This document shows, in pieces, positions 30,153-41,464 of a stretch of DNA of 64,000 nt. The DNA is from Anaerohalosphaeraceae bacterium (GTDB taxonomy: Bacteria > Planctomycetota > Phycisphaerae > Sedimentisphaerales > Anaerohalosphaeraceae): positions 32,001 to 96,000 of the forward strand of contig CAXXSL010000001.1 of assembly GCA_963675525.2 (NCBI GenBank), given 5' to 3'. The notes beneath the pieces are model-generated. The model was not told the origin of the DNA and did no database searches. It saw only the letters and a program-made list of their open reading frames with translations. Position 1 is the stretch's first letter. Each line of letters starts with the position of its first letter. The position numbers and the translations under genes are program-made.

Positions 30153-30279
30153 ATGTAAATCGGTGTTTTTGATTCAAAAATACCCCGATGTACAGCAGAT
30201 TTTAGAGGTATGGGAAACCCTGCCTAAGCATGTCAAACAGGCCATCATGGCCCAGATCGCACCGTATCAAGAGAAATAA
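30153..30279 (+). pseudogene. Orphan copy of the integrase-tail peptide (QKYPDVQQILEVWETLPKHVKQAI...)
   Basis: Similar to QKYPELGHIIAAWPELPEHTKEAI at 33323-33433; no clear start codon. Confidence 0.65.
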
Positions 30280-30384
30280 ATTGACTTTATTTGGACAGAA
30301 GATATACTGATAGTATCATTTCCGAAAAGCCACCACCGGTAGGATGGCTTGCAGAGGAGAGGAAGAGATAACGGAGAAGGGAAG

Positions 30385-31122
30385 ATGAAAAAGATTGTTA
30401 TAGTGTGGATGTTTGTTTTCTCATTTGTTCTTTATGCGGACGTGGTTCCTTTTGAACGGTATTATGAGGGCACTGCAAACGCATCTTTCAGGAGGGGTGG
30501 GACTGTTTATTCGTTAAATGATTCAACCGTGAATGGGACTGCTGATGCCTTTGACACTGCATACCCTTATAATGGTGGAGCAATTATTCAGACGGCGACA
30601 GGGGGAACATTTCCAGATACAATTCAGGTTGTCGCCTACTATCCTGCTGTTTATCTACCGTCAGAGAGGCCGGAGTGTTGGTCAAGGGGATATGTTTCGG
30701 GATGGATAGACATCGGAACTACTTCAGAATACCCGCTTGGAACTCCCCTTGAATTGGAAATTAAATATGGAACCTTCGATGAGTATAAGGATTCGGATTA
30801 CCTTTACCGGGGGATTAATATGAGAAACCAGAATGGCGACATTGTTTGGGAGGCGTCCCATTCGACAGATGGTGTCATGGAAACCAATTCTCTACAAATT
30901 ATCGCTGGGACATGGTATACCTTTGAGGCCTGGCACGTCTTCGGTGCATCAGCATTTCCTATCATACCAAATGAACTCAAGTTGAGTGCACTTGTATTTG
31001 ACTTTGCGGTTGTTCCTGAACCGGCGACGGCGGTGCTGCTGGGGTTGAGTGGATTGATATTGAGGAAACACAGAATGTTCCCCGCTAGGGTAAAGTCTTC
31101 TGGACAACCTCTTTGCCGTTAG
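30385..31122 (+). CDS. PEP-CTERM sorting-domain protein with an extended C-terminus
   Basis: Signal peptide; VPEPATAVLLGLSGLILRKHR followed by 16 extra residues overlapping the convergent gene. Confidence 0.88.
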   Translation: MKKIVIVWMFVFSFVLYADVVPFERYYEGTANASFRRGGTVYSLNDSTVNGTADAFDTAYPYNGGAIIQTATGGTFPDTIQVVAYYPAVYLPSERPECWSRGYVSGWIDIGTTSEYPLGTPLELEIKYGTFDEYKDSDYLYRGINMRNQNGDIVWEASHSTDGVMETNSLQIIAGTWYTFEAWHVFGASAFPIIPNELKLSALVFDFAVVPEPATAVLLGLSGLILRKHRMFPARVKSSGQPLCR

Positions 31123-33145
31123 CTGTAAAGGTCAGATTGCCAATTTTATCGATAGTTATCGGTGACTGTTTGACATTAGTCAGCAAGTTGCCGCCGACAT
31201 AGATATCTTTAAGCGTTAGATTCTTGATATTTTTGAAAATGAACGGTCGTGTGGGGTCTTTAAACCAGCAGTTCTCAATAATCACAGTATCCGGGTTAAA
31301 GCCGGACAAATCTGAACCTACCGGAATCGCCACGTTTTCACCGCTGTTGCCGGCAAAGGAACAGTTCCTGAAAATCAGGCTTTCATACTCAGGGTAGCAC
31401 TTGTTGACACCGTTCTGGGCCCTGATGGCGCTGCCTGAAGTGCGCATGACAGAGTTGAAATTGTTGAAGGTATAGCTCTTGAGTTGATAGCTTGTATACT
31501 GTCCGGGCTGGCCTTTCCAGCAGGTGTTGGCTCCTAAGCGGATATTATTCGCCATGCCGCTCCAGGCCAGTACGTTGTTAACCGAGATGTTTTCCGAGTC
31601 TTCCGTGTCCCATCTCAACCTCTCTTTGTTGTAGATTGCAGCGGCGGCACAAACATTGTTCTTCGCGGCTTCCATCCGTGTTTTTTCTTCGCCTGTCACT
31701 CGATCTAATTCATCGAGAAAGCGACGTGGAAATTCATCACTGGGGTTGTAGTGGCCGGAGGCAAAGGTGTCATCATTACCCAGGGTAAAGGCACCGTTCA
31801 CAGTAACATTCCGGCCGCTGGTCAAATCCAGTCCGTCGACCCATGCATGGTCATAGGGAGAAAGCCCCTTGATGTTATTGTAGGTTACATTCTTAACCGT
31901 ATGACACTCCCAGTTCCACTGTTTGACATCACGAACATATGTATCGTTGAAGGTGATGTCCTCGGATTGTACCACCATCACGCCTCCCTGATGAGGCGTG
32001 TCCCGTGCATCCTTACGGTCTATTTTGAGGGTATAACAGGCATTCCCGTCAATGATACCTCGACCGGAAATGGTTATATTCGAGGAATTCCAGATACCGA
32101 TAGCCGGTTCCATGGCTTGCTTGCATTCCTGGAGCCGATTTACCAACAGCGCATCTTCATCCAGGTAGATGTTCAGTTCGCCGTCTGCCCCGTTGCCATT
32201 CCAATCTTTGATACATAGACCGGACCAGATGTAAGTGCCTGCGGGAAAGTAGATCGTGTCTAATTCAGAACGTGTTCTTACTTTTTCCAACGCTGCCTGG
32301 AATGCCTCAGATAGATCAATTTTAACCCTCACACGCTTATTGGGGAACTGTACGTTTCTTCCACTCTGGCTCACATATTTACCCGCTTCATAATGCCATG
32401 TGAATTGCTCGTTGGTGTTTCTGCTTGTATCGGTAACTGTTCCCGGGGGACGACACTCCTGGCCCTCTTGATCAGTGATAGGTTTATTTTTCAGATAGGT
32501 CGCGGCGAACTTCTTGAAGTTAAGAACATTGCCGGCATTCAAATCAGGTTTGCCTGTTTCCGGCGGGTCGTTGATGATAGCCAGCATTGGGATGCCTGCC
32601 ATCTTCTTATCCGTTAGGCTGCCGTTTATATTGATGATGCAATACGGCAGCTTTTCGGACATGGTAAAGGTCAATGTCTTTTTGTCGCTGCTAACGCTCA
32701 GCGCTTCCTGAGGATAGTAACGTTCCGGGTAAATTTCAATACTGTTGATTATCGTATCGTCCTTTAATGTGATCTCGAACTTAGGAGTTCTGTCTTCCGA
32801 AGAAAACCGTGCAATATCAAAATTGTAGAACTTGCTGCCATCCGGACCTTTCTTGTACATGTAAACAGAAACAGATGTATCATTTGCAGTCATTTCAAAC
32901 TTGGTAGATTCCGGGTACTGTGTGTTCTCTGTAATGTCATCGCTGGCCAGAATGGCAGACTCATCTATCTCTGTTGTGGCAGGATCGTCCCCCGATTTGC
33001 CGTAGTCGTGTACCGCGCCACCCTTACCTTCTGCGGCAAGGTGATTAGCAGGAAATATAGCCAATACGATAAGCGTGGCAATCAGCAACACAAACGCCCT
33101 GGTTTCAGGATTTATGTTCTTTTGAGTTGTATATTTAGTCATCAT
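31085..33145 (-). CDS. Secreted beta-helix glycoside hydrolase (GH28/GH49-like pectin-lyase fold)
   Basis: TIYFPAGTY, NITISGRGIIDG, DGLD and NDD motifs; signal peptide. Confidence 0.7.
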   Translation of the reverse strand: MMTKYTTQKNINPETRAFVLLIATLIVLAIFPANHLAAEGKGGAVHDYGKSGDDPATTEIDESAILASDDITENTQYPESTKFEMTANDTSVSVYMYKKGPDGSKFYNFDIARFSSEDRTPKFEITLKDDTIINSIEIYPERYYPQEALSVSSDKKTLTFTMSEKLPYCIININGSLTDKKMAGIPMLAIINDPPETGKPDLNAGNVLNFKKFAATYLKNKPITDQEGQECRPPGTVTDTSRNTNEQFTWHYEAGKYVSQSGRNVQFPNKRVRVKIDLSEAFQAALEKVRTRSELDTIYFPAGTYIWSGLCIKDWNGNGADGELNIYLDEDALLVNRLQECKQAMEPAIGIWNSSNITISGRGIIDGNACYTLKIDRKDARDTPHQGGVMVVQSEDITFNDTYVRDVKQWNWECHTVKNVTYNNIKGLSPYDHAWVDGLDLTSGRNVTVNGAFTLGNDDTFASGHYNPSDEFPRRFLDELDRVTGEEKTRMEAAKNNVCAAAAIYNKERLRWDTEDSENISVNNVLAWSGMANNIRLGANTCWKGQPGQYTSYQLKSYTFNNFNSVMRTSGSAIRAQNGVNKCYPEYESLIFRNCSFAGNSGENVAIPVGSDLSGFNPDTVIIENCWFKDPTRPFIFKNIKNLTLKDIYVGGNLLTNVKQSPITIDKIGNLTFTANGKEVVQKTLP

Positions 33146-33215
33146 TATAAAGCTCCTTGATTCATAGGTCGCCGCTTTTCAGACAGCGAAGAGACTTGCC
33201 GATGACACATTAATA

Positions 33216-33237
33216 CCCCAAGGGGACTCGAACCCCT
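33216..33237 (-). repeat. Distal att site (displaced tRNA-Glu 3' fragment)
   Basis: Identical to 41243-41264; the flanking C run is one base shorter than in the intact tRNA. Confidence 0.93.
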
Positions 33238-33433
33238 TGAACGAGGTATACAAGGAACTTATAACAAAGAACTTACGGAAAGTCAAGCATCTGTCTTGTC
33301 CACTGGCTTGGACAAAACCCTGCAAAAATACCCCGAATTGGGGCATATCATAGCCGCTTGGCCGGAACTGCCCGAACACACCAAAGAAGCAATTACATCA
33401 CTTATTCAAGCTCATAATCAGGAGGTCAAGTAA
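33218..33433 (+). CDS. Start-less open frame; predicted C-terminal tail of the integrase in the excised form
   Basis: PRGLEPLERGIQ...QKYPELGHIIAAWPELPEHTKEAITSLIQAHNQEVK* is in the same frame across the att core as the integrase. In-frame TGA at 33203; no ATG. Confidence 0.75.
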   Translation, partial: PRGLEPLERGIQGTYNKELTESQASVLSTGLDKTLQKYPELGHIIAAWPELPEHTKEAITSLIQAHNQEVK

Positions 33434-33621
33434 TGCTTAATATCAGCAGACGATTAGGTAAAGCTGAAAAGGCACTGAATCTAAGCGGAGAACATATTAC
33501 CGTTAAAATGGTCTGTTATGGTGGTGAATTACCACCTGACCGGACACAAGGCAATATAACTGTTCAATATGTTATGTATGATAAAAAGGAAAATCAATGC
33601 GAAACATTAGCAGGCGAATAA
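33433..33621 (+). CDS. Small hypothetical protein (MLNISRRL motif)
   Basis: RBS GGAGG; TAATG coupling to the upstream frame. Confidence 0.7.
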   Translation: MLNISRRLGKAEKALNLSGEHITVKMVCYGGELPPDRTQGNITVQYVMYDKKENQCETLAGE

Positions 33622-33797
33622 ATACTATCGAACAAAAAATGAATATAGTCTGTCATAGAAAGATGCCAAGGCGGGTTCTTTATCTTTCAAGTAAACAATG
33701 GCAAGAGGACGGGTGTCCAAGGAATTGTGTAATTTTGGGCAAGAAAAACAACAAAAGGCAACCAAAAACAACCAATTCCCCGAAAGTTGAGCGATAA
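33597..33797 (+). CDS. Small hypothetical protein (MRNISRRI motif)
   Basis: RBS AAGGA; N-terminus similar to the preceding ORF. Confidence 0.6.
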   Translation: MRNISRRINTIEQKMNIVCHRKMPRRVLYLSSKQWQEDGCPRNCVILGKKNNKRQPKTTNSPKVER

Positions 33798-34173
33798 CAT
33801 GAGCGAAGCAAAACTTACAGCCCGACAGCTTAAAGCGATACCGCATATCGTCAGCAGTCCTACATATACCGATGGCTGTAAAAAGGCTAAAATCAATAAG
33901 ACCACATTTTATAAGTGGCTAAAAGAGCCTGAGTTTAAGGCCGAACTCGACCGGCAGCGGGACGAGATAGCCGCTGAGGCGTTCGGTGTGCTATCACAGA
34001 GCCTTACTCAAGCGGTTGAGGCTCTTGTGGGCTTGCTGGACAACAAAGACGACCGGCTGAAAAGACTGGCCGCTAAAGACGTAATCGACTTCATTATCCG
34101 GCATAAGGAAAATGAGGACTTGGACGAACGGCTAAAAGAAGTCGAAAAGCTTTTGGCAGATAAAAGACTTTAA
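33787..34173 (+). CDS. HTH protein resembling phBC6A51/terminase small subunit-like proteins
   Basis: LTARQLKAI...AKINKTTFYKWLKEPEFKAEL, followed by a helical C-terminus. Confidence 0.65.
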   Translation: MSDNMSEAKLTARQLKAIPHIVSSPTYTDGCKKAKINKTTFYKWLKEPEFKAELDRQRDEIAAEAFGVLSQSLTQAVEALVGLLDNKDDRLKRLAAKDVIDFIIRHKENEDLDERLKEVEKLLADKRL

Positions 34174-34485
34174 GACCTACCACAGTGAACCTCTTTTGCA
34201 TTAGTTACTTTGATTGCCAATTGATTTATCTACAGTGAAAGCAGAAAATGGATCAGTCTGATTGAAAACAAAAACGACTTAAGAAAATTGAAGCACAGGC
34301 CGGAACCGAAGAAGACTGGGTAAAACTTCCCGACCCGAACAATCCCGGCAAAATGATTGTGTAATGGTTTCAATTTGGAATTTTATAGTTCTTATTCTGT
34401 ACATGCTAAAAGAACATTTGTGACTATATTTTAAATGTAATATCGTTCTTTGACAAGTTAAAAGGTCGGCTGGGGGGAAGTAAAA

Positions 34486-35196
34486 TTAGTCAAAAGGATT
34501 TTGGTAAAGCTCTGATTCTTTCACTTCAAAGTTATGCCCATATTTTTTGCTTACACCTTCAATTAATTTCTTGAGCCACATAGAAGTCTTTGGCGCGATA
34601 TACACTTTTTGGATAAGAATGTCGAGGTCAATTTTTATTTTTATTCCATTGGAACCCTGGTTTTCTATGATTATCGACCGGAGTTCTTTTTCGTGGCTGA
34701 AAGATGGATGTTTTAATCTTGCCGCATCTAAGGTACTGTAAGATTTTCCTGTTTTGTGAGTGGGCGTACCAACATGGTTGTTACTATATGCTACTTTGGC
34801 GATATACACTTCATGCGGACACCCGGCAAGAGCTTTTTTGAGCCTTCCAGATATAGATTTAATGGCAATTCCTTCATTGCTTTTAAGGTACAATTTCCAT
34901 AAAGCAGCAGATTCTACTTTGTTCATATGCCAGCAGTTAGCATATGTTATGGCTTTGTTGACATTGAAGAGATTTTCGATACCTTTAGGGATAGATGGGT
35001 CTTTTTCTTTTATCAGCTTACGAAGTGGTTTACTTGTGACATTCCAGAAGGAAGAATCGAGGGGGTCTTCAAACCGCATCGAATTGCAAAAAAACAGTGT
35101 CTTGGTGTGCAGTAAATCCACATATTTGGTGAAATCCATATATCGCCAAATCGTTATATTGTCGGACACATCTGATATTATATTACTGTTTATCAT
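34486..35196 (-). CDS. DUF2971-like protein
   Basis: IWRYMD..K...LL, FEDP, NCWH.N..ESAALWKLY and K...F.HEKE.R motifs. Confidence 0.75.
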   Translation of the reverse strand: MINSNIISDVSDNITIWRYMDFTKYVDLLHTKTLFFCNSMRFEDPLDSSFWNVTSKPLRKLIKEKDPSIPKGIENLFNVNKAITYANCWHMNKVESAALWKLYLKSNEGIAIKSISGRLKKALAGCPHEVYIAKVAYSNNHVGTPTHKTGKSYSTLDAARLKHPSFSHEKELRSIIIENQGSNGIKIKIDLDILIQKVYIAPKTSMWLKKLIEGVSKKYGHNFEVKESELYQNPFD

Positions 35197-35258
35197 ATTT
35201 AGAGATTGTATTGTTTCGGAAATTATAGCCTGGCGGCTGGATTAGGCAAGGGAAAAAC

Positions 35259-35798
35259 CTATCGGCTCCGTTTGAGCCTAAGGGCTAAACCGCCTAAACC
35301 CAAAAGTAAAAGTGTGCAGGGTTCGGGGACAAGTATCCAATTGCCCGGTTCATCAGGTCCAACTTTGGCTAATGTAGAGCTGACAGGTGGGAAAATTCCT
35401 ACTAAGTCAATAGATGCTGTATGAGATGGTAAATGGTTATCGTCAAATGTTGTCTCAATGAATATTTCATCGCTAAGAAAAATATAGAAATTCCATAAGG
35501 TAAATGTTGAATAGTCATTTGATAGTGTGGCAGATAAAGGTATTGTTTCAATATTTGCAGTATTTGAACTTAATGTTGTTGGTCCTGCTGTAAATGACCA
35601 GTTCAAAAAATCTGTTACAATTAATCCCTCTAAGGGTATATCTATTTCGACAAAACCCGTTATTCTGAAACCCTCATATAACGGAGTCGCATCGGTAAAA
35701 ACATTTCCTGTGTATTCATATATAAGAGATGAATGTACAACATTTGTTGTTAAACTCAATATTGAGAAAAGTACAATTAGCTTTTTCATCTTCCCCAT
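35259..35798 (-). CDS. PEP-CTERM sorting-domain protein
   Basis: Signal peptide; VPEPCTLLLLGLGGLALRLKRSR. Confidence 0.9.
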   Translation of the reverse strand: MGKMKKLIVLFSILSLTTNVVHSSLIYEYTGNVFTDATPLYEGFRITGFVEIDIPLEGLIVTDFLNWSFTAGPTTLSSNTANIETIPLSATLSNDYSTFTLWNFYIFLSDEIFIETTFDDNHLPSHTASIDLVGIFPPVSSTLAKVGPDEPGNWILVPEPCTLLLLGLGGLALRLKRSR

Positions 35799-35811
35799 CC
35801 TCCATTAAATG

Positions 35812-36480
35812 TTATCGTTTTCTAATCAATATGCCACTCATGCCCAACAGCAGAAGTGTGGTAGGTTCTGGGACAGCTATTACTGCTGCTGAGAGGTCGT
35901 TCTCTTCAATAGGTATCGCAAAGCTTGTATTGTCAAGCCACCTGCCCGTCAACGTGCCCGTGCCCAATATTGTTTGGCCATCAATATCCCATGAAAGACC
36001 ACCAAATAGTTCAAAGTCAGAACCTTCTATAATAACAGTGCTGTTACTGTGAGCGTGGAGACCGGCCAAGCTACCGCCGGAAATATTTAGCTGGCTGTTG
36101 CCATAAGTCACCCAAGCACCTACCGAACCACTGGATATTGTTACTTGGCTATTCTGATCCGATGATGAAGCTCCAATTACTGAACCCCCGGATATTGCTA
36201 CCTGGCCGTTATTTTGGGCTCTCAAATAGCTTACTGAACCAGATATTGTTGCCTGGCTTGTATCGTTTATCCACAAATAGTATATCAAACTTCCGGGTAA
36301 GATTTCGACTGTTGTTGGAAATCCAGAAGATGAGTTTCGCACCACGACATCATCATCAATCGAATAGCCAATATTGTGTGCTCCGCCATCTTCAAAATAA
36401 ATAACCGCCCTTGCTTCTGGAAAACAAACACATAAAGCCACTAGCATTGATAATAGAAATGTTCTTTTCATCTTCCCCAT
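35812..36480 (-). CDS. PEP-CTERM sorting-domain protein
   Basis: Signal peptide; repeated 'SQ..ISGGS' beta-solenoid units; VPEPTTLLLLGMSGILIRKR. Confidence 0.9.
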   Translation of the reverse strand: MGKMKRTFLLSMLVALCVCFPEARAVIYFEDGGAHNIGYSIDDDVVVRNSSSGFPTTVEILPGSLIYYLWINDTSQATISGSVSYLRAQNNGQVAISGGSVIGASSSDQNSQVTISSGSVGAWVTYGNSQLNISGGSLAGLHAHSNSTVIIEGSDFELFGGLSWDIDGQTILGTGTLTGRWLDNTSFAIPIEENDLSAAVIAVPEPTTLLLLGMSGILIRKR

Positions 36481-36622
36481 CCTCCAAAATATGCGTTTCC
36501 TTCAATTTTCTCCGATGGTTTGATTATAGCGAATCAGGATACGGATAATCAACGAAAAAGGGGGGAATCCTTGTAATACTGCCCAAATCCGGTATAATTA
36601 CGGGTACAAACAAGCTTTTTAT

Positions 36623-36702
36623 GTCGGGACGGCAGGCCGTACACCTGCCAAGCAGCACAATCGGGGTAATGTACACCTGTCCGTTATCCTGCTTGTGCCG
36701 AC
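36623..36702 (+). ncRNA. Candidate C4/CI-like three-way-junction RNA
   Basis: P1 gtcgggac/gtgccgac, P2 ggcagg/cctgcc and P3 aagcag/ctgctt; both terminal hairpins contain gtacacctg; upstream TTGTAA-N16-TATAAT. Confidence 0.55.
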
Positions 36703-36721
36703 CCGAAGAAAGACAGGTAAA

Positions 36722-37375
36722 ATGACGAATCCATCATTACTTGACTATATGCAACTTGCAAAACGTTTCTATGCAGACCTCAATGTTTATACTCAAACAC
36801 AAACTGAAACTGATTTATATAAAAAATCAGATAAGGTAAATACAACATATCTGAAAGCCAACATTGATTCGTTGGGGGATGTAGTCTTTGGTCTTCAACA
36901 GGACGGCTATGCAGACAAAGCAACAGCTTTGGTAATAGCTGTTGAGAATGTTCGTAGGGCCGTAAAAAATCACGACAACGGGAAGACTACAGGGACAGAG
37001 GTGAAAGTACATGTCGCTCATCTTATCAAACAATTAACTGCTTTATGTCGTCCGACAGCACCCCAAATATCTACAGAACCAATGCAAAATAAGCAGACTG
37101 CAATAGAAAATAAACAGTGTTGGCATAATCCAGATTTTACGTCGGTCGTTTGGTACGGCATTGAATATTGCTTTAACAAAACACAAGGGAAAATCATCAA
37201 TTACCTTTGGCAGAATGAAACTGCAACAGAAATAAAGTTGGGTGAAATTATCGGCACAGCGGCAGGAATCTATCGGCTAAAAGATACTTTCCGAAACAAA
37301 GAAGGCTATCATTGTGCTTGGGGAAAAATGATAGTAAAAGCAGGAAAAGGCTGTTTCATGCTAAATAAATCATAA
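36722..37375 (+). CDS. Hypothetical protein with a probable C-terminal winged-helix domain
   Basis: Long ORF; C-terminal HNPDFTSVVWYG.EY.FNKTQGKII.YLW...GKG.FML. Confidence 0.65.
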   Translation: MTNPSLLDYMQLAKRFYADLNVYTQTQTETDLYKKSDKVNTTYLKANIDSLGDVVFGLQQDGYADKATALVIAVENVRRAVKNHDNGKTTGTEVKVHVAHLIKQLTALCRPTAPQISTEPMQNKQTAIENKQCWHNPDFTSVVWYGIEYCFNKTQGKIINYLWQNETATEIKLGEIIGTAAGIYRLKDTFRNKEGYHCAWGKMIVKAGKGCFMLNKS

Positions 37376-37381
37376 AGACGG

Positions 37382-37418
37382 CCCCCCACAAAACCCCACT
37401 AAAACCCCACAAAACCCC
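37382..37418 (+). repeat. Tandem ~10-11 bp repeats (aaaaccccac)
   Basis: cccccacaaaaccccactaaaaccccacaaaacccc. Confidence 0.8.
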
Positions 37419-37458
37419 TTTTTGTTTTTCAACGACTATATGATTTACTATAGTCATA

Positions 37459-37659
37459 ATGAAAGATGAAAACTCGAATCTGATAAATTTACTTGGCTTA
37501 GCCGGAGAGCTTCAACTTCCTGCCGTATGGCTAAAAGAGCAAGCATTAAAGGGCTTTATTCCCTGTCTGTTCATCGGCAAAAAAATCCGATTCAATGTAG
37601 ATGCTGTCAAAACAGTATTAGCAGACTTGGCAGCAAAGGGGGCTAACTATGAAGACTGA
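37459..37659 (+). CDS. Excisionase-like HTH protein
   Basis: LAGELQLPAVWLKEQALKGFIPCLFIGKKIRFN fits the HTH_17 pattern. Confidence 0.7.
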   Translation: MKDENSNLINLLGLAGELQLPAVWLKEQALKGFIPCLFIGKKIRFNVDAVKTVLADLAAKGANYED

Positions 37660-37894
37660 AGCCCCCACAATCCAGCCTGCACTTTTGACGATTCCACAAG
37701 TCTGTCAATACCTGAATATCGCACGTCCAACATTCTACAAAATCAATCAAACGGGGGCTTTTGGCCTGTTACCTATTAAGCTGGGAACTTGTCGTAAAGT
37801 TTTGTACTCACGCGCGGAACTTGAAGCATTTTTGCGGGCGGGCTGTCCGCATAGAAAAATATGGCAAACACAAAAAAAGGATTTTATGAAATGA
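37649..37894 (+). CDS. AlpA/excisionase family HTH protein
   Basis: LLTIPQVCQYLNIARPTFYK...PIKLG. Confidence 0.82.
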   Translation: MKTEAPTIQPALLTIPQVCQYLNIARPTFYKINQTGAFGLLPIKLGTCRKVLYSRAELEAFLRAGCPHRKIWQTQKKDFMK

Positions 37895-38112
37895 GGCTAA
37901 AGATGATTCCAGAAAAAGAAAAAGCCGTTGCGATAACAACGGCCATGAACAACAAACTACAACTTAAAACATACAGCAAAACCGCATTTCTGTCAAGCCA
38001 AAAAGAGCAGATGGGCCAATTATTGTTTGCACTTGTAGGGGATACTGCCGACCGGCAAGGATGGGTTCTATTTGAGCGGTTCTTGGGTGGATACTACAAA
38101 GGGGCGCGATAA
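37891..38112 (+). CDS. Hypothetical protein
   Basis: ATGA and TAATG overlaps with its neighbours. Confidence 0.5.
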   Translation: MRLKMIPEKEKAVAITTAMNNKLQLKTYSKTAFLSSQKEQMGQLLFALVGDTADRQGWVLFERFLGGYYKGAR

Positions 38113-39338
38113 TGAGTAATCCTTTGTTGAATGAAGCTCTGGAATGCCACGGGCGCAAGTGGTGTATTATCTCTGTGCCTTATGGCAAAAAGAAGCCGGT
38201 TATTAAATGGGGCATTTATCAAAAGACCCGCCCGGATGAAAATACTATCCGGCAATGGTTTTCAGGCGATAAGGCGAATATAGCGGTCTTATTGGGTGAA
38301 ATCAGCGGCGGTCTTACCTGTCTTGATTTTGACGATATGCAGGGCTATGAACAGTGGAAACAAGCCAATCCTTCACTTGCCGCTAAATTGCCGACTGTTA
38401 AAACATCTCGTGGTATGCATGTTTATTTTCAGTCAACACTAACAAAAACCCAAAAGATGGAAAAACTTGATATAAAAGCGTCTGGATATTGTATGCTGCC
38501 CCCATCGCTTCACCCTGACGGAAAAACCATTTACAGGTGGTTGATTCAGCCAAACGGGGATATACCTGAACTGACTTTATCTGAATTAGGTATAGACCAT
38601 TTAACAGAAGAAACAGACGCTATTGCTTCACTTTCTTCACTGTCATCACATTCCTCACTGTCTTCACATTCTTCACCTTCTTCTGTAAAGTCAATCAATA
38701 AAGAAATAGTTATCTTTGAAAAACTGGATGATAAGATTCAACATTATGTAAATATGGCCGTAAAATGTACTTTGCCGAGCAAAACAGGTTATCGCAATTT
38801 CTTGATTTTTCAGTTTTGCCGATGGTTAAAAGGACATTCTGAATTTGAAAAGCTCACTGCCGGACAACTAAAGCCACTGGTTAGACTCTGGCATGGACGG
38901 GCATTGCCTTTTATCGGTACTCAGGAATTTGACGTAACATGGGCCGATTTTGCTTATGGATGGAAACGAGTCAAATATCCGAAGGGAAACGGAGCATTGA
39001 AAACAGCGGTAGAAACAGCATTGAACGCAGAAAATCTTATCCCTGCCGAGGAAATATATGAAAAGCCCGAAATGAGATTATTGGTAAGGATTTGCTTTGA
39101 ACTCCAGAAATTACAGGAAAAAGAGCCGTTTTGGTTGTCTTGGAATGATGCGGCTTTGATATTGGGGGTATCTACACCAACGGCGGGGAAATGGCTCTGT
39201 ATGCTTGAGGCTGATAGTGTAGTTCAAAAGGTTGAAGGGCACACCCATATAAAAGCGGCAAGATATATATATTTATTGGAGATTGAAAATTTTATTGAAA
39301 AAGAACTTGACAGAAATACGGAATACCGTACAATATGA
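38112..39338 (+). CDS. Prim-pol (bifunctional primase/polymerase) domain replication protein with a C-terminal HTH
   Basis: KKPVIKW, NIAV..G..SG.L.CLDFD, VKTSRGMHVYF and LPPSLHP motifs. Confidence 0.88.
   Translation: MSNPLLNEALECHGRKWCIISVPYGKKKPVIKWGIYQKTRPDENTIRQWFSGDKANIAVLLGEISGGLTCLDFDDMQGYEQWKQANPSLAAKLPTVKTSRGMHVYFQSTLTKTQKMEKLDIKASGYCMLPPSLHPDGKTIYRWLIQPNGDIPELTLSELGIDHLTEETDAIASLSSLSSHSSLSSHSSPSSVKSINKEIVIFEKLDDKIQHYVNMAVKCTLPSKTGYRNFLIFQFCRWLKGHSEFEKLTAGQLKPLVRLWHGRALPFIGTQEFDVTWADFAYGWKRVKYPKGNGALKTAVETALNAENLIPAEEIYEKPEMRLLVRICFELQKLQEKEPFWLSWNDAALILGVSTPTAGKWLCMLEADSVVQKVEGHTHIKAARYIYLLEIENFIEKELDRNTEYRTI
39307..39334 (+). promoter_or_regulatory. Promoter/operator of the xre-orf-integrase operon
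   Basis: TTGACA-N16-TACAAT with palindrome tacgg-aata-ccgta (39317-39330). Confidence 0.7.
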
Positions 39339-39342
39339 GTAT

Positions 39343-39558
39343 ATGACAATGATTAGAAAAGCAATTCTGAAACGCATGGGTGAACTGAAAATGAACCCTA
39401 ACCAGTTATCCGAAATACTCAAGGGCAGTATCCCCCGTATGACAATCTATGATTTCTTATCTGGTAAAAGTGATGCACGTTCGGAAGTTGTGGGGGAAAT
39501 AATGAAAGCCCTTGGGCTTGAAATTGTGTCCAAAAGTGCTAAAAGAAAAGGCAGGTGA
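39343..39558 (+). CDS. XRE/Cro-like HTH regulator
   Basis: MNPNQLSE...IPRMTIYDFLSGKSD...IMKALGLEI. Confidence 0.82.
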   Translation: MTMIRKAILKRMGELKMNPNQLSEILKGSIPRMTIYDFLSGKSDARSEVVGEIMKALGLEIVSKSAKRKGR

Positions 39559-39561
39559 AGC

Positions 39562-39900
39562 ATGACGAACAGAGAAATTGAGAACAAAAAAAATGAGTTG
39601 ATTAGAATTGTTAATATGTCAAGCGGGACGGAAAATCAACGCATGAAGGAACTACGTAAGTTGGCATTAGATGTAGGAGCAAGTCATAAAACTGTAGATG
39701 GCAACCGGAATGCTAATGAAGCAGAATTGGTTGTCGGTATTCAAACCGCATTGCAAACAGCGTTGATGCTTAATTCCTGTAAGAGTTCAACAATGGCTTG
39801 GATTATAGCAATAATTTCTGTGGGCATAGCTCTAATCTCTACATTAGTTTCAGGACTTAGTGCGGTTGCAGCTTGGGTTGCGGTTTTTGTGAATGAATGA
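39562..39900 (+). CDS. Hypothetical protein with a C-terminal membrane anchor
   Basis: RBS AGGTG; hydrophobic C-terminus. Confidence 0.7.
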   Translation: MTNREIENKKNELIRIVNMSSGTENQRMKELRKLALDVGASHKTVDGNRNANEAELVVGIQTALQTALMLNSCKSSTMAWIIAIISVGIALISTLVSGLSAVAAWVAVFVNE

Positions 39901-39923
39901 TAAAACGAAAAGGCAGGTGAAAA

Positions 39924-41277
39924 ATGAGAGTTTACAAACCTACATACAAGGACAGGAACGGTCAAAAGCAAAAAAACCGCTGCTTGGTATGTCGATATTT
40001 TCGACCATAACCGACTTCGGCATAAAATACCGGCTTTTGCCGATAAGCGGTTGTCCGAAGCATTAGGGCGGAATATTGAAAGCCTTATCAACTGCCGGAT
40101 TGCAGGGCTTGAACCCGATGTTAAACTTAACCAGTGGATAGAAACCCTGCCTGACAGTTTGCTAAAGAAATTCGTGTCTTGGGGGCTGATTGACGGACAG
40201 CGGGCAGAGATTACAAAGCCACTGAAAGAGCATATAGACGATTATATCAAAATTCTCAAAGCCAAAGGATATTCCAAGGACTATATCACTCGGTCTAAAA
40301 ATCGTCTTAAAAAAATCACGTCTGATTGCAGATTCACTTATTTCAGGGATATTACACAATCAGCGGTTGAAATTTATTCAGGTAAACTCAAAAAGGATGG
40401 TTATGGCGATACCAGCAGGGCGCATTATCTTGATGCTCTGAAAACTTTCCTGAATTGGGCAGAAACAGACCAACGGATTATTCGCAACCCTATTTCAAAG
40501 ATGGGGAAACCGGCAAGGGATTCAGAGAAAAAGGGGATTTTGACACCGGAGCAATTTATTCGGCTGATTCAGACGACAATCAAAAAGAATATCATCATTC
40601 AGACAACAACCGGCGTAGATCGTGGGATTTTATATTTTCTGGCAGGGGTTACGGGGCTAAGAAGAAGGGAATTATTGCTCTTGACGTGGGACGATCTGCA
40701 CCTTGCCGGAGAAAGCCCCTTTGTACTTGCAAGGGCGGATACTACTAAAAATGCACAGGAAGCCCACCAGCCGATACCTGCAACGCTGGCAAGGCTTCTG
40801 GAAGCCCTACAAGGCCATAGGAAGCCCGAAGGAACGGGCAGGCTATTCGAGGGCTTTGCTATGTCGATCAATACGGCTATGCTAATCAGAGAGGATTTGG
40901 CGGTTGCTAAGATAAAGCCCAAGGACAAGGACGGGAACGAGGTATGTTTTCATTCGCTACGAAATTCCTATATCAGTTATTTGGCCAACGGTGGCGCACC
41001 GGCCAAGATCGTTCAAAAACTGGCCAGACATTCAGACCCCCGCTTGACTTTCAACACTTATGCCAGAGTCTTTGAGGAAACCGAACAGGAAGCCATTGCA
41101 TTACTGCCGAATGTCGGAAATTTTGTCTTGTCCAACTGCTTGGACAAAAACTGGATAAGGCAGGAGATTTGCATAGACAACCAGAGACACAAAAGCAGCC
41201 AAGACACGATAGAAACCGCATTCTTGGCTGACAGGAAACTACCCCCAAGGGGACTCGAACCCCTGTTACCGGGATGA
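39924..41277 (+). CDS. Tyrosine recombinase/integrase, with a +1 frameshift in an A7 run at 39970-39976
   Basis: TGLRRRE, HSLR, LARH and TFNTY catalytic motifs. N-terminus MRVYKPTYKD.../TAAWYVDIFDH is split across two frames. ORF ends inside the tRNA. Confidence 0.92.
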
Positions 41278-41312
41278 GAACCCGGCGTCCTAGGCCGCTA
41301 GACGATGGGGGC
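41240..41312 (-). tRNA. tRNA-Glu(CTC)
   Basis: GCCCCCATCGTCTAGCGGCCTAGGACGCCGGGTTCTCATCCCGGTAACAGGGGTTCGAGTCCCCTTGGGGGTA. Confidence 0.96.
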
Positions 41313-41390
41313 CTTTGGAATTTTCAATTGATCATTGTCAATTGTAGAATAAAACCAAAAACAAGCTCATCGAGAGCTTGTTTTCGGCAA

Positions 41391-41464
41391 TAGCGGCGGG
41401 TGGATTCGAACCACCGACCCTGGGCTTATGAATCCCATGCTCTAACCAACTGAGCTACGCCGCC
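41391..41464 (-). tRNA. tRNA-Met(CAT), probably elongator
   Basis: GGCGGCGTAGCTCAGTTGGTTAGAGCATGGGATTCATAAGCCCAGGGTCGGTGGTTCGAATCCACCCGCCGCTA. Confidence 0.93.

Follow-up and report, generated by a model that had tools for sequence, protein, structure and literature searches.

An attachment site inside the integrase gene of a satellite-like planctomycete island, with a predicted C-terminal extension and a coupled operon in the circular form

Introduction

What becomes of an integrase gene when the core of its own attachment (att) site lies within its reading frame? The question is raised by a 64,000-nucleotide stretch of an Anaerohalosphaeraceae bacterium (assembly GCA_963675525.2, contig CAXXSL010000001.1, positions 32,001 to 96,000; hereafter the window, numbered from its first nucleotide). 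Here a tyrosine integrase gene (int) runs through an att core and stops just beyond it, inside a transfer RNA (tRNA) gene, and a second copy of the core, in the same frame, opens at the other end of an integrated island into a stretch of 64 codons without ATG, called here the tail open reading frame (ORF). Judged from the sequences compared below, the tail ORF appears to extend the C-terminus of the integrase when the element is circular. We consider it likely that the locus is an island with attP inside int, in which the tail and an operon coupled to it go together with two forms of the integrase, the operon being expressed efficiently only from the circle.

Results

The island ends and the two lengths of int

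The exact 22-bp direct repeat CCCCAAGGGGACTCGAACCCCT occurs at two positions with a spacing of 8,027 bp (Table 1); these are its only copies in the window, and it was found in none of 100 shuffles. One copy is the 3' end of a tRNA-Glu gene, the usual signature of integration into a tRNA gene, and the 8,027-bp segment is therefore an integrative island in the 3' end of tRNA-Glu. The coordinates that a preliminary description of this DNA had given for the core, the integrase end, the left stretch and its TAATG overlap were all borne out on recheck.

The integrase ORF at 40051..41277 (408 amino acids, aa) reads PPRGLEPL across the core and ends in LPG* at 41277, within the tRNA gene. The domain PF00589 (E 3.7e-14) covers residues 164-342 of this ORF, PF13102 was also matched, and the invariant columns R204, H301, R304, H327 and Y337 all lie upstream of the core. 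The PF00589 domain with its R, H-x-x-R, H and Y columns thus agrees with the earlier claim that all catalytic residues stay on one side. At the other end of the island, translation from 33203 gives 'HINTPRGLEPLERGIQ...HNQEVK', i.e., an in-frame TGA at 33203, the peptide HINTPRGLEPL and then 64 residues, and the closing TAA overlaps an ATG at 33433 (TAATG). The integrase would accordingly measure about 511 aa in the circle, as against about 450 aa when integrated. At the composition of the element, the chance that the required frame stays open over 64 codons is about 0.015, and the comparative data on frame continuity given below make a chance origin of the open frame untenable.

The length of 450 aa takes into account a run of seven A (A7) that breaks the integrase frame in this assembly and leaves the ATG at 39924 one frame off from the integrase body. 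With one A removed, the N-terminus reads MRVYKPTYKDRNGQKQK followed by TAAWYVDIF, like that of the homologue P0001. Two sequencing runs, X1 and X2, were available as contigs only; they come from one sample, which is probably the source of the window's assembly. A contig of X1 has exactly one base fewer at 39970 (A6), which restores the frame, and the X2 contigs break there; nor is the run a conserved feature of the 66 homologous loci described below. For these two reasons the frameshift is probably a sequencing or assembly error or a polymorphism, i.e., a minor variant, and programmed frameshifting at the run was ruled out. As a separate observation on the same region, a 25-nt repeat (88% identical, AAAxGAAAAGGCAGGTGAAxxATGA) at 39541-39565 and 39903-39927 precedes the start codons of a 112-aa ORF and of the integrase, forming a duplicated translation-initiation region.

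The reading frame continues across the core in relatives

A search with the 408-aa integrase body returned 283 homologues, most of them 450 aa long. Among the 120 homologues listed, 116 end 1-9 residues past a tRNA-derived peptide (e.g., PRGFEPLLPG, PRGVEPLSPG and RVGLEPTT), two have no such peptide, and two, the natural fused proteins P0096 (513 aa) and P0114 (516 aa), keep their frame beyond it and end in a tail that carries the W-P motif described below. The att site thus falls within int, and ORFs of both lengths exist in nature.

At the DNA level, 81 related loci were examined; 66 include the 3' end of int, and 14 of these extend at least 6 kb upstream. An upstream core copy, 25-56 bp long and 6.3-9.3 kb away, was present in 7 of the 14. 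Circularising relatives in silico had been proposed as a check, with continuity in about one case in three expected by chance; the frame of the core was found to be identical on both sides in eight of eight elements (the window, L001, L010, L017, L056, L057, L059 and L075). L045 and L065 were left out of this count because a contig end cuts the 3' end of int and their core matches are spurious short ones. Seven of the eight elements with both ends have the W-P tail, and L056 has a 47-residue variant without the motif. Insertions between core and motif consist of whole codons, namely two of 4 codons in L045 and one of 19 codons in P0121. Comparison of these relatives argues that frame continuity across the core is selected.

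One relative was found as a circle. L055 is a 6,275-bp contig without a tRNA gene, and since its exact terminal overlap of 127 bp is the assembly signature of a circle, it corresponds to a circular molecule of about 6.1 kb. Its integrase is a 528-aa ORF that spans the core and continues as a tail whose distal part differs; the integrated relative of L055, L051, ends LLPA* in tRNA-Glu. Together with the fused ORFs of P0096 and P0114, this circular contig upholds the claim of a longer integrase in the circular form.

Of 20 loci scanned, 19 have an antisense tRNA (Glu-TTC, Glu-CTC or Asn) beneath the stop of int. A single-protein scan of a genome collection gave one relevant locus, a sample of 400 other genomes of the phylum gave one further genome with homologues, and an integrase alignment search of a viral contig collection gave no integrase relative. 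Genome G314, of the same family, carries two more distant integrase relatives, L008 and L009 (49% and 36% identity), which run antisense into a transfer-messenger RNA (tmRNA) gene and a tRNA-Phe gene; L008 remains open for about 80 more codons, which contain no tail motif. At the left junction of L001 (4804-5116), core and tail are preceded in frame by about 28 codons from the C-terminus of a second integrase that differs slightly from the first; they are the remnant of a tandem neighbour.

The tail is a recurrent C-terminal module

A search for the tail among 1.84 billion representative proteins returned 137 related proteins of 36-167 aa, in which the tail is always C-terminal. Upstream sequence could be assessed in 97 of them, and at least 50 of the 97 have an in-frame tRNA-core peptide directly before the tail, a lower bound set by regular expression, as many of the other 47 by eye have other tRNA-antisense peptides that went uncounted. 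In P0143 and P0152 the integrase C-terminus, the core and the tail stand in one ORF. The motif W-P-x-L-P-E is kept across the 137 tail clusters (50% identity) and across different tRNA cores. No Pfam or PHROGs family was found for the tail, and its matches in a protein atlas were only unnamed Planctomycetota clusters. An 86-aa protein from the protein library, P0230, has two tandem copies of W-P-x-L-P-E, so the module also occurs outside the context of an integrase tail.

Structure prediction with AlphaFold2 (AF2) divides the fused protein P0096 into three parts. Residues 1-380 are confident, with strands at 2-36 followed by a helix; the attP-encoded linker at 390-462 has a predicted local distance difference test (pLDDT) score below 50; and residues 466-509 form three helices with pLDDT 81-90. 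Folded alone, the tail of the window gives the same three helices (pLDDT 83-93). With this fold, Foldseek found no match in the PDB, and the highest Z in a wide VIA-align search was 4.3, a value without specificity where helices are concerned. Complex prediction of the tail with the integrase body scored 0.04, which speaks neither for nor against contact. The predicted module thus appears to be explained by no solved fold or known family among those searched.

These features matter for annotation. Pipelines call the integrase at 450 aa and the tail as an orphan ORF of 80-120 aa that starts in host DNA, and both calls misdescribe what is one gene.

Constraint on DNA and constraint on protein within one ORF

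We compared seven elements by Nei-Gojobori counts of the proportions of synonymous (pS) and non-synonymous (pN) differences. The catalytic part of int has pS 0.63 and pN 0.16, with identities at codon positions 1/2/3 of 0.80/0.84/0.55. For the last 50 int codons before the core (residues 346-395) the values are pS 0.39, pN 0.29 and 0.66/0.74/0.67, and for the first 26 tail codons pS 0.26, pN 0.29 and 0.70/0.72/0.73. The low pS and the nearly equal codon positions indicate conservation as DNA on both sides of the core, over about 50 codons ahead of it and 26 beyond it. The distal 34 tail codons (residues 27-60), with pS 0.48, pN 0.31 and 0.61/0.77/0.58, are conserved in a protein-like manner, with the second codon positions the most conserved. 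The tail frame is free of stops in all seven elements, and each of the other five frames in 0-6.

The regions conserved as DNA contain a pair of matched motifs, one on each flank of the core (P and P' arm motifs in Table 1). Their consensus of about 24 bp, TGTCTTKNCCAnYnGCTTGGMCAA, occurs only twice in the window; these two copies match at 21 of 24 positions without gaps, and their half-sites TTGTCCA / TGGACAA are identical. In 7 of 8 pairs the two copies of an element carry the same variant of the motif, and the pair in L055, a variant of its own, is matched too. Around the motif, synonymous change is suppressed on each core flank. We read the matched motifs as putative arm-type sites of attP. 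A likeness between int and tail at the peptide level (VLSxxLDK) is a by-product, because the arm motifs encode it. The natural candidate for a binder of the motifs would be the N-terminal beta domain of the integrase, a role suggested by its predicted structure.

This partition bears on two other explanations of the tail. The tail could be an independent small gene, translated in both states from the TTG at 33296 or 33308, with the continuity with int tolerated and not used. Indeed, 40 of the 137 tail ORFs begin inside the tail or fewer than 8 residues before it, the distal tail alone has a coding signature, and the in-frame TTG codons are conserved. However, the TTGs belong to the arm motif, so that DNA constraint accounts for their conservation; there is no ATG ahead of the tail and, by reading, the in-frame TTGs have no Shine-Dalgarno sequence of the GGAGG type upstream. 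Moreover, the stretch from core to TTG never has a stop and changes in length only by whole codons, and natural fused ORFs exist. An independent gene is unlikely on this balance.

Slightly less likely still, in our estimate, is that conservation of the attP arms as DNA keeps the frame open incidentally, the extension being functionless as a protein and integration trimming a dispensable end. Such a by-product would agree with the DNA-level, not protein-level, constraint in the last 50 int codons and the first 26 tail codons, with the disordered AF2 linker, and with the other or shorter tails of L055 and L056. Yet the distal 34 codons, although past the arm motif, keep W-P-x-L-P-E across the 137 clusters and different tRNA cores, their second codon positions are the most conserved, and their helices are predicted with confidence.

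The tail stop is coupled to a putative short operon

The tail stop overlaps or abuts the next start (TAATG, ATGA or TAAATG) in the window, L010, L017, L057, L059 and L075, and L001 has a 7-nt gap with GAGGA between the two; of the seven elements whose tail is intact, six thus show coupling. The third small gene after the tail of the window resembles a small terminase subunit (Table 1), and L075 has a homologue in the same position that is 60% identical. The terminase-like gene is directly next to the tail in L001, L010 and L017, whereas in the window and L075 two or three small ORFs stand between them. A consensus scan gave no sigma-70-like site on the + strand within 32900-33787. The proposal that three small genes join the integrase operon after excision is supported in part, by the coupling of the tail stop, and one of the three is now recognised as terminase-like; silence of these genes in the integrated state would be its further prediction.

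State of the site in the sample

The left junction of the window is covered in two independent run assemblies. Run X1 also has a 676-bp contig that shares the left flank at 33190-33233, at a depth of 5.7 versus 9.8 for the element. This contig has one extra C after 33215, matching the true tRNA end, and departs from the window after 33233 into sequence absent from the window's genome; some members of the population may thus have something else inserted at this site. In both runs, a 140-kb contig of four-fold higher depth corresponds to 41236-41421, with tRNA-Glu (5 differences) and tRNA-Met separated by a spacer of about 40 bp versus 76 bp in the window, and with a different left flank as well. 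It is a more abundant relative in the sample, without the island at that place. Five genomes of the same family were compared for an empty site; the same-genus contig begins beside the tRNA, and the left flank is elsewhere or missing.

A degenerate second tail, detected with a hidden Markov model (HMM), lies 3 kb further left (Table 1), with no core copy near it. An older element, now decayed, probably had its left end here, in which case a PEP-CTERM ORF (30349-31122) and the neighbouring GH28-like gene may be the remains of that element. That the left tail itself, as an assembly artefact or tandem remnant, belonged to some other decayed element and at no time formed one gene with this int might be suggested by this second tail, by the remnant int C-terminus at the left junction of L001 and by the branching of the 676-bp contig at attL, but it is highly improbable, given that the left-end arm motif and the int copy agree at 21 of 24 positions with identical half-sites, that two run assemblies cover the junction, and that the layout recurs in seven other loci.

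Gene content of the island

The remaining genes of the island are listed in Table 1. A 29-nt repeat (90% identical; 35783-35811 and 36465-36493) spans the starts of the two minus-strand genes with PEP-CTERM-like ends, which look like paralogues. The HTH_17 gene has tblastn matches in 7 of 8 related elements compared, the exception being L059. In L010 (9170-9852), an excisionase-like ORF and a protein of a Doc-like toxin family (phrog_577, E 4e-19) lie just upstream of int and are possibly an addiction module. The set of genes expected of a satellite is present (integrase, AlpA/excisionase-like, primase/replication and small terminase), sizes range over 6.1-9.3 kb, and the att site is specific. 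By its genes alone, the island looks like a phage satellite.

Table 1. Positions of the features discussed, in window coordinates.
Feature	Position	Strand	Remarks
Degenerate second tail, 38 aa, MFLIQKYPDVQQILEVWETLPKHVKQAIM...	30163..30279	+	HMM independent E-value 2.7e-12; intergenic gap 3 kb left of attL
GH28-like gene, divergent host gene	31085-33145	-	flanks left end; tail and operon sit behind host DNA when integrated
attL core	33216..33237		displaced copy of tRNA-Glu 3' end; exact repeat of 41243-41264
Tail ORF	33239..33433	+	64 codons (33239-33430) and stop TAA 33431-33433; no ATG
P' arm motif TGTCTTGTCCACTGGCTTGGACAA	33292..33315	+	inside tail ORF, ~55 bp after core
Small ORF, 62 aa	33433..33621	+	start overlaps tail stop; no family match
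Small ORF, 66 aa	33597..33797	+	no family match
Small-terminase-like gene, 128 aa	33787..34173	+	phrog_2538 'terminase small subunit' E 1.5e-13; PF13022 E 7.6e-8
Cargo block: 236-aa protein and two proteins with PEP-CTERM-like ends	34486..36480	-	phrog_34615 (236-aa protein) E 1.4e-44; PEP-CTERM just under cut-off, twice
226-aa ORF	36695..37375	+	first gene of long + strand block; no family match
HTH_17/excisionase-like gene, 81 aa	37649..37894	+	PF12728 E 5.7e-8; phrog_66
Prim-Pol replication protein, 408 aa	38112..39338	+	PF09250 E 2.7e-19; phrog_1156
Weak HTH_3/repressor-like ORF, 91 aa	39283..39558	+	PF01381 below cut-off; phrog_4 E 5.8e-5
112-aa ORF	between HTH_3 ORF and integrase	+	right plus-strand block, which also has small ORFs
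Tyrosine integrase, integrated form	39924..41277	+	~450 aa if A-run is A6; PF00589, PF13102; N-terminus compared with P0001
A7 run	39970..39976	+	breaks integrase frame in this assembly
P arm motif TGTCTTGTCCAACTGCTTGGACAA	41124..41147	+	inside int, ~95 bp before core
Target gene tRNA-Glu(ctc)	41240..41312	-	source of the integrated integrase's last three codons and stop
attR core	41243..41264		inside int and tRNA-Glu 3' end at once
tRNA-Met	41391-41464	-	second tRNA of window, beyond tRNA-Glu

Discussion

A recombination-dependent integrase

In the arrangement that we favour, an island with attP inside int, the integrase gene of the circle would form a single ORF that passes through attP and encodes about 511 aa. 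The protein would consist of an N-terminal arm-binding sheet, the core-binding and catalytic domains, a linker of about 80 residues and the three-helix W-P-x-L-P-E end; the linker would really be attP DNA in translation and is predicted to be disordered. The tail stop would be coupled to the first start codon of a short operon, the last gene of which is the small-terminase-like one, so that long integrase and terminase operon might be produced from the same transcription and translation unit. Integration would cut the ORF at the core. The chromosomal copy would keep the catalytic residues and end in LPG* with a stop supplied by the tRNA gene, and the tail and the terminase operon would be moved 8 kb away to the left end, behind a divergent host gene.

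By analogy with Int and IntX of the Myxococcus phage Mx8 (below), we infer that the two forms of the integrase differ in activity or directionality and that efficient expression of the terminase operon is confined to the circle. On the same analogy, the short form might be less active or differently directed and so stabilise the integrated state. More tentatively, and with some doubt on our part, excision could license packaging, the read-through of attP and the three-helix end switching the enzyme isoform and the packaging module together. The integrase of the circular form would then be a different enzyme, either proficient in integration or tethered to packaging or replication proteins, and a packaging-specificity factor would be made only when the element is circular, because ribosomes would have to cross attP to pass from int to the terminase-like operon.

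Several observations weigh against a long integrase that is made and used in the circle. Half of the 14 loci with at least 6 kb upstream have no core copy in the available sequence, and the eight elements with a continuous frame are not eight independent trials, because they share ancestry. The tail of L056 is short (47 residues) and lacks the motif, and L055, with its different distal tail, has no coupled gene after it. The terminase-like gene was not recognised in L057 or L059. Over the whole tail, dN/dS is about 0.65-0.76, a moderate constraint at the protein level, and the TTGs at 33296 and 33308 could start translation. Neither a circular junction nor an empty site was seen in the contigs of runs X1 and X2, and contigs cannot show absence; the attP junction that the preliminary description had predicted is thus missing from the run contigs and is spanned, core included, in the circular relative L055.

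Comparison with known systems

The principle is known from Mx8. The passages of PMC6070905 that deal with this phage place attP within int and state that integration makes a new 3' end, the integrase being modified, with a change in its activity, and not inactivated; those of the Islander paper (PMC4383910) name Mx8 and SSV integrases as extending across attP. Given these sources, which bear on Mx8 and also Mx9, the novelty claimed in the preliminary description was overstated, and what we describe is a variant in an unrelated integrase lineage. The island resembles Mx8 and Mx9 in having attP in int, a short new 3' end, a retained catalytic part, a tRNA target and an excisionase or excisionase-like gene upstream of int. 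As in the Mx8-type arrangement, the core is inside the int ORF of the circle, the short end is host-encoded and the catalytic residues are kept.

In the Mx8 record, uoi is next to int, and the peptide STGLEPV lies about 112 residues before the end of Int. Work by Magrini and colleagues from 1999 is said to have found that Mx8 needs arm sequences on both sides of the core within int. The end exchanged in Mx8 is shortened from 112 residues to 13, as against 64 to 3 here. Unlike Mx8, a 49.5-kb phage, the elements described here are satellite-like islands of 6-9 kb, with a conserved three-helix tail module and, coupled to the stop of this module, a terminase-like operon. When Mx8 Int was compared with P0096 by BLASTP, the best E was 0.78, i.e., no detectable relationship, and since there is no sequence similarity the likeness is one of architecture and not of kinship.

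Other systems share parts of this logic. SSV1-type fusellovirus integrases have att within int, and passages of PMC5861418 describe the gene as interrupted by integration; in the island, by contrast, only a C-terminal extension is removed and the catalytic part stays whole, which sets it apart from split integrases. Turning from interrupted genes to expression that depends on state, the element ICEKp1 is described as having an int promoter that depends on recombination state. Celli and Trieu-Cuot, in 1998, reportedly found transcription through the joint and state-dependent expression in Tn916. In both, expression depends on state because excision joins the ends and transcription units cross the attachment site. 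These cases involve promoters and untranslated joints, whereas in the island a single ORF appears to cross the joint, with the next gene translationally coupled; judged from sequence only, gene orientation and start/stop coupling fit a Tn916-like pattern. In phage lambda, the sib sequence beyond attP controls int expression only when contiguous with it, through an effect of RNA structure on mRNA stability, unlike the downstream sequence here, which is predicted to be translated as part of Int. BPs-type mycobacteriophages, whose immunity depends on integration, have attP in the repressor gene, as Broussard and colleagues are said to have reported in 2013, and integration changes the C-terminus of that protein; in the island it is the integrase and not the repressor that is cut, and no degradation tag is evident in the tail.

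In gene content, the island is like chromosomal islands of the phage-inducible kind (PICI) and like VEIME, whose gene repertoire is treated in PMC9618062. The likeness, from genes alone, consists in small size, a tyrosine integrase, an AlpA/HTH_17 gene, a primase/replication gene and a small-terminase homologue. The term 'attP' has no occurrence in the main text of PMC9618062. A search of one collection of papers for phrases placing attP within a gene gave no planctomycete or satellite case, the supplements of satellite papers lying outside its scope.

Conclusions

To our knowledge, Mx8 has stood almost alone in bacteria as a case of an enzyme that rewrites its own gene. The same logic is now seen in integrases of another, unrelated lineage, which environmental Planctomycetota commonly carry (283 integrase homologues and 137 tail clusters). 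Natural variation in this lineage is sufficient to part DNA-level constraint, on the attP arms, from protein-level constraint inside one ORF. The arrangement makes testable predictions, in which directionality would be set without, or alongside, an excisionase, and it suggests how a satellite could tie the expression of packaging genes to excision.

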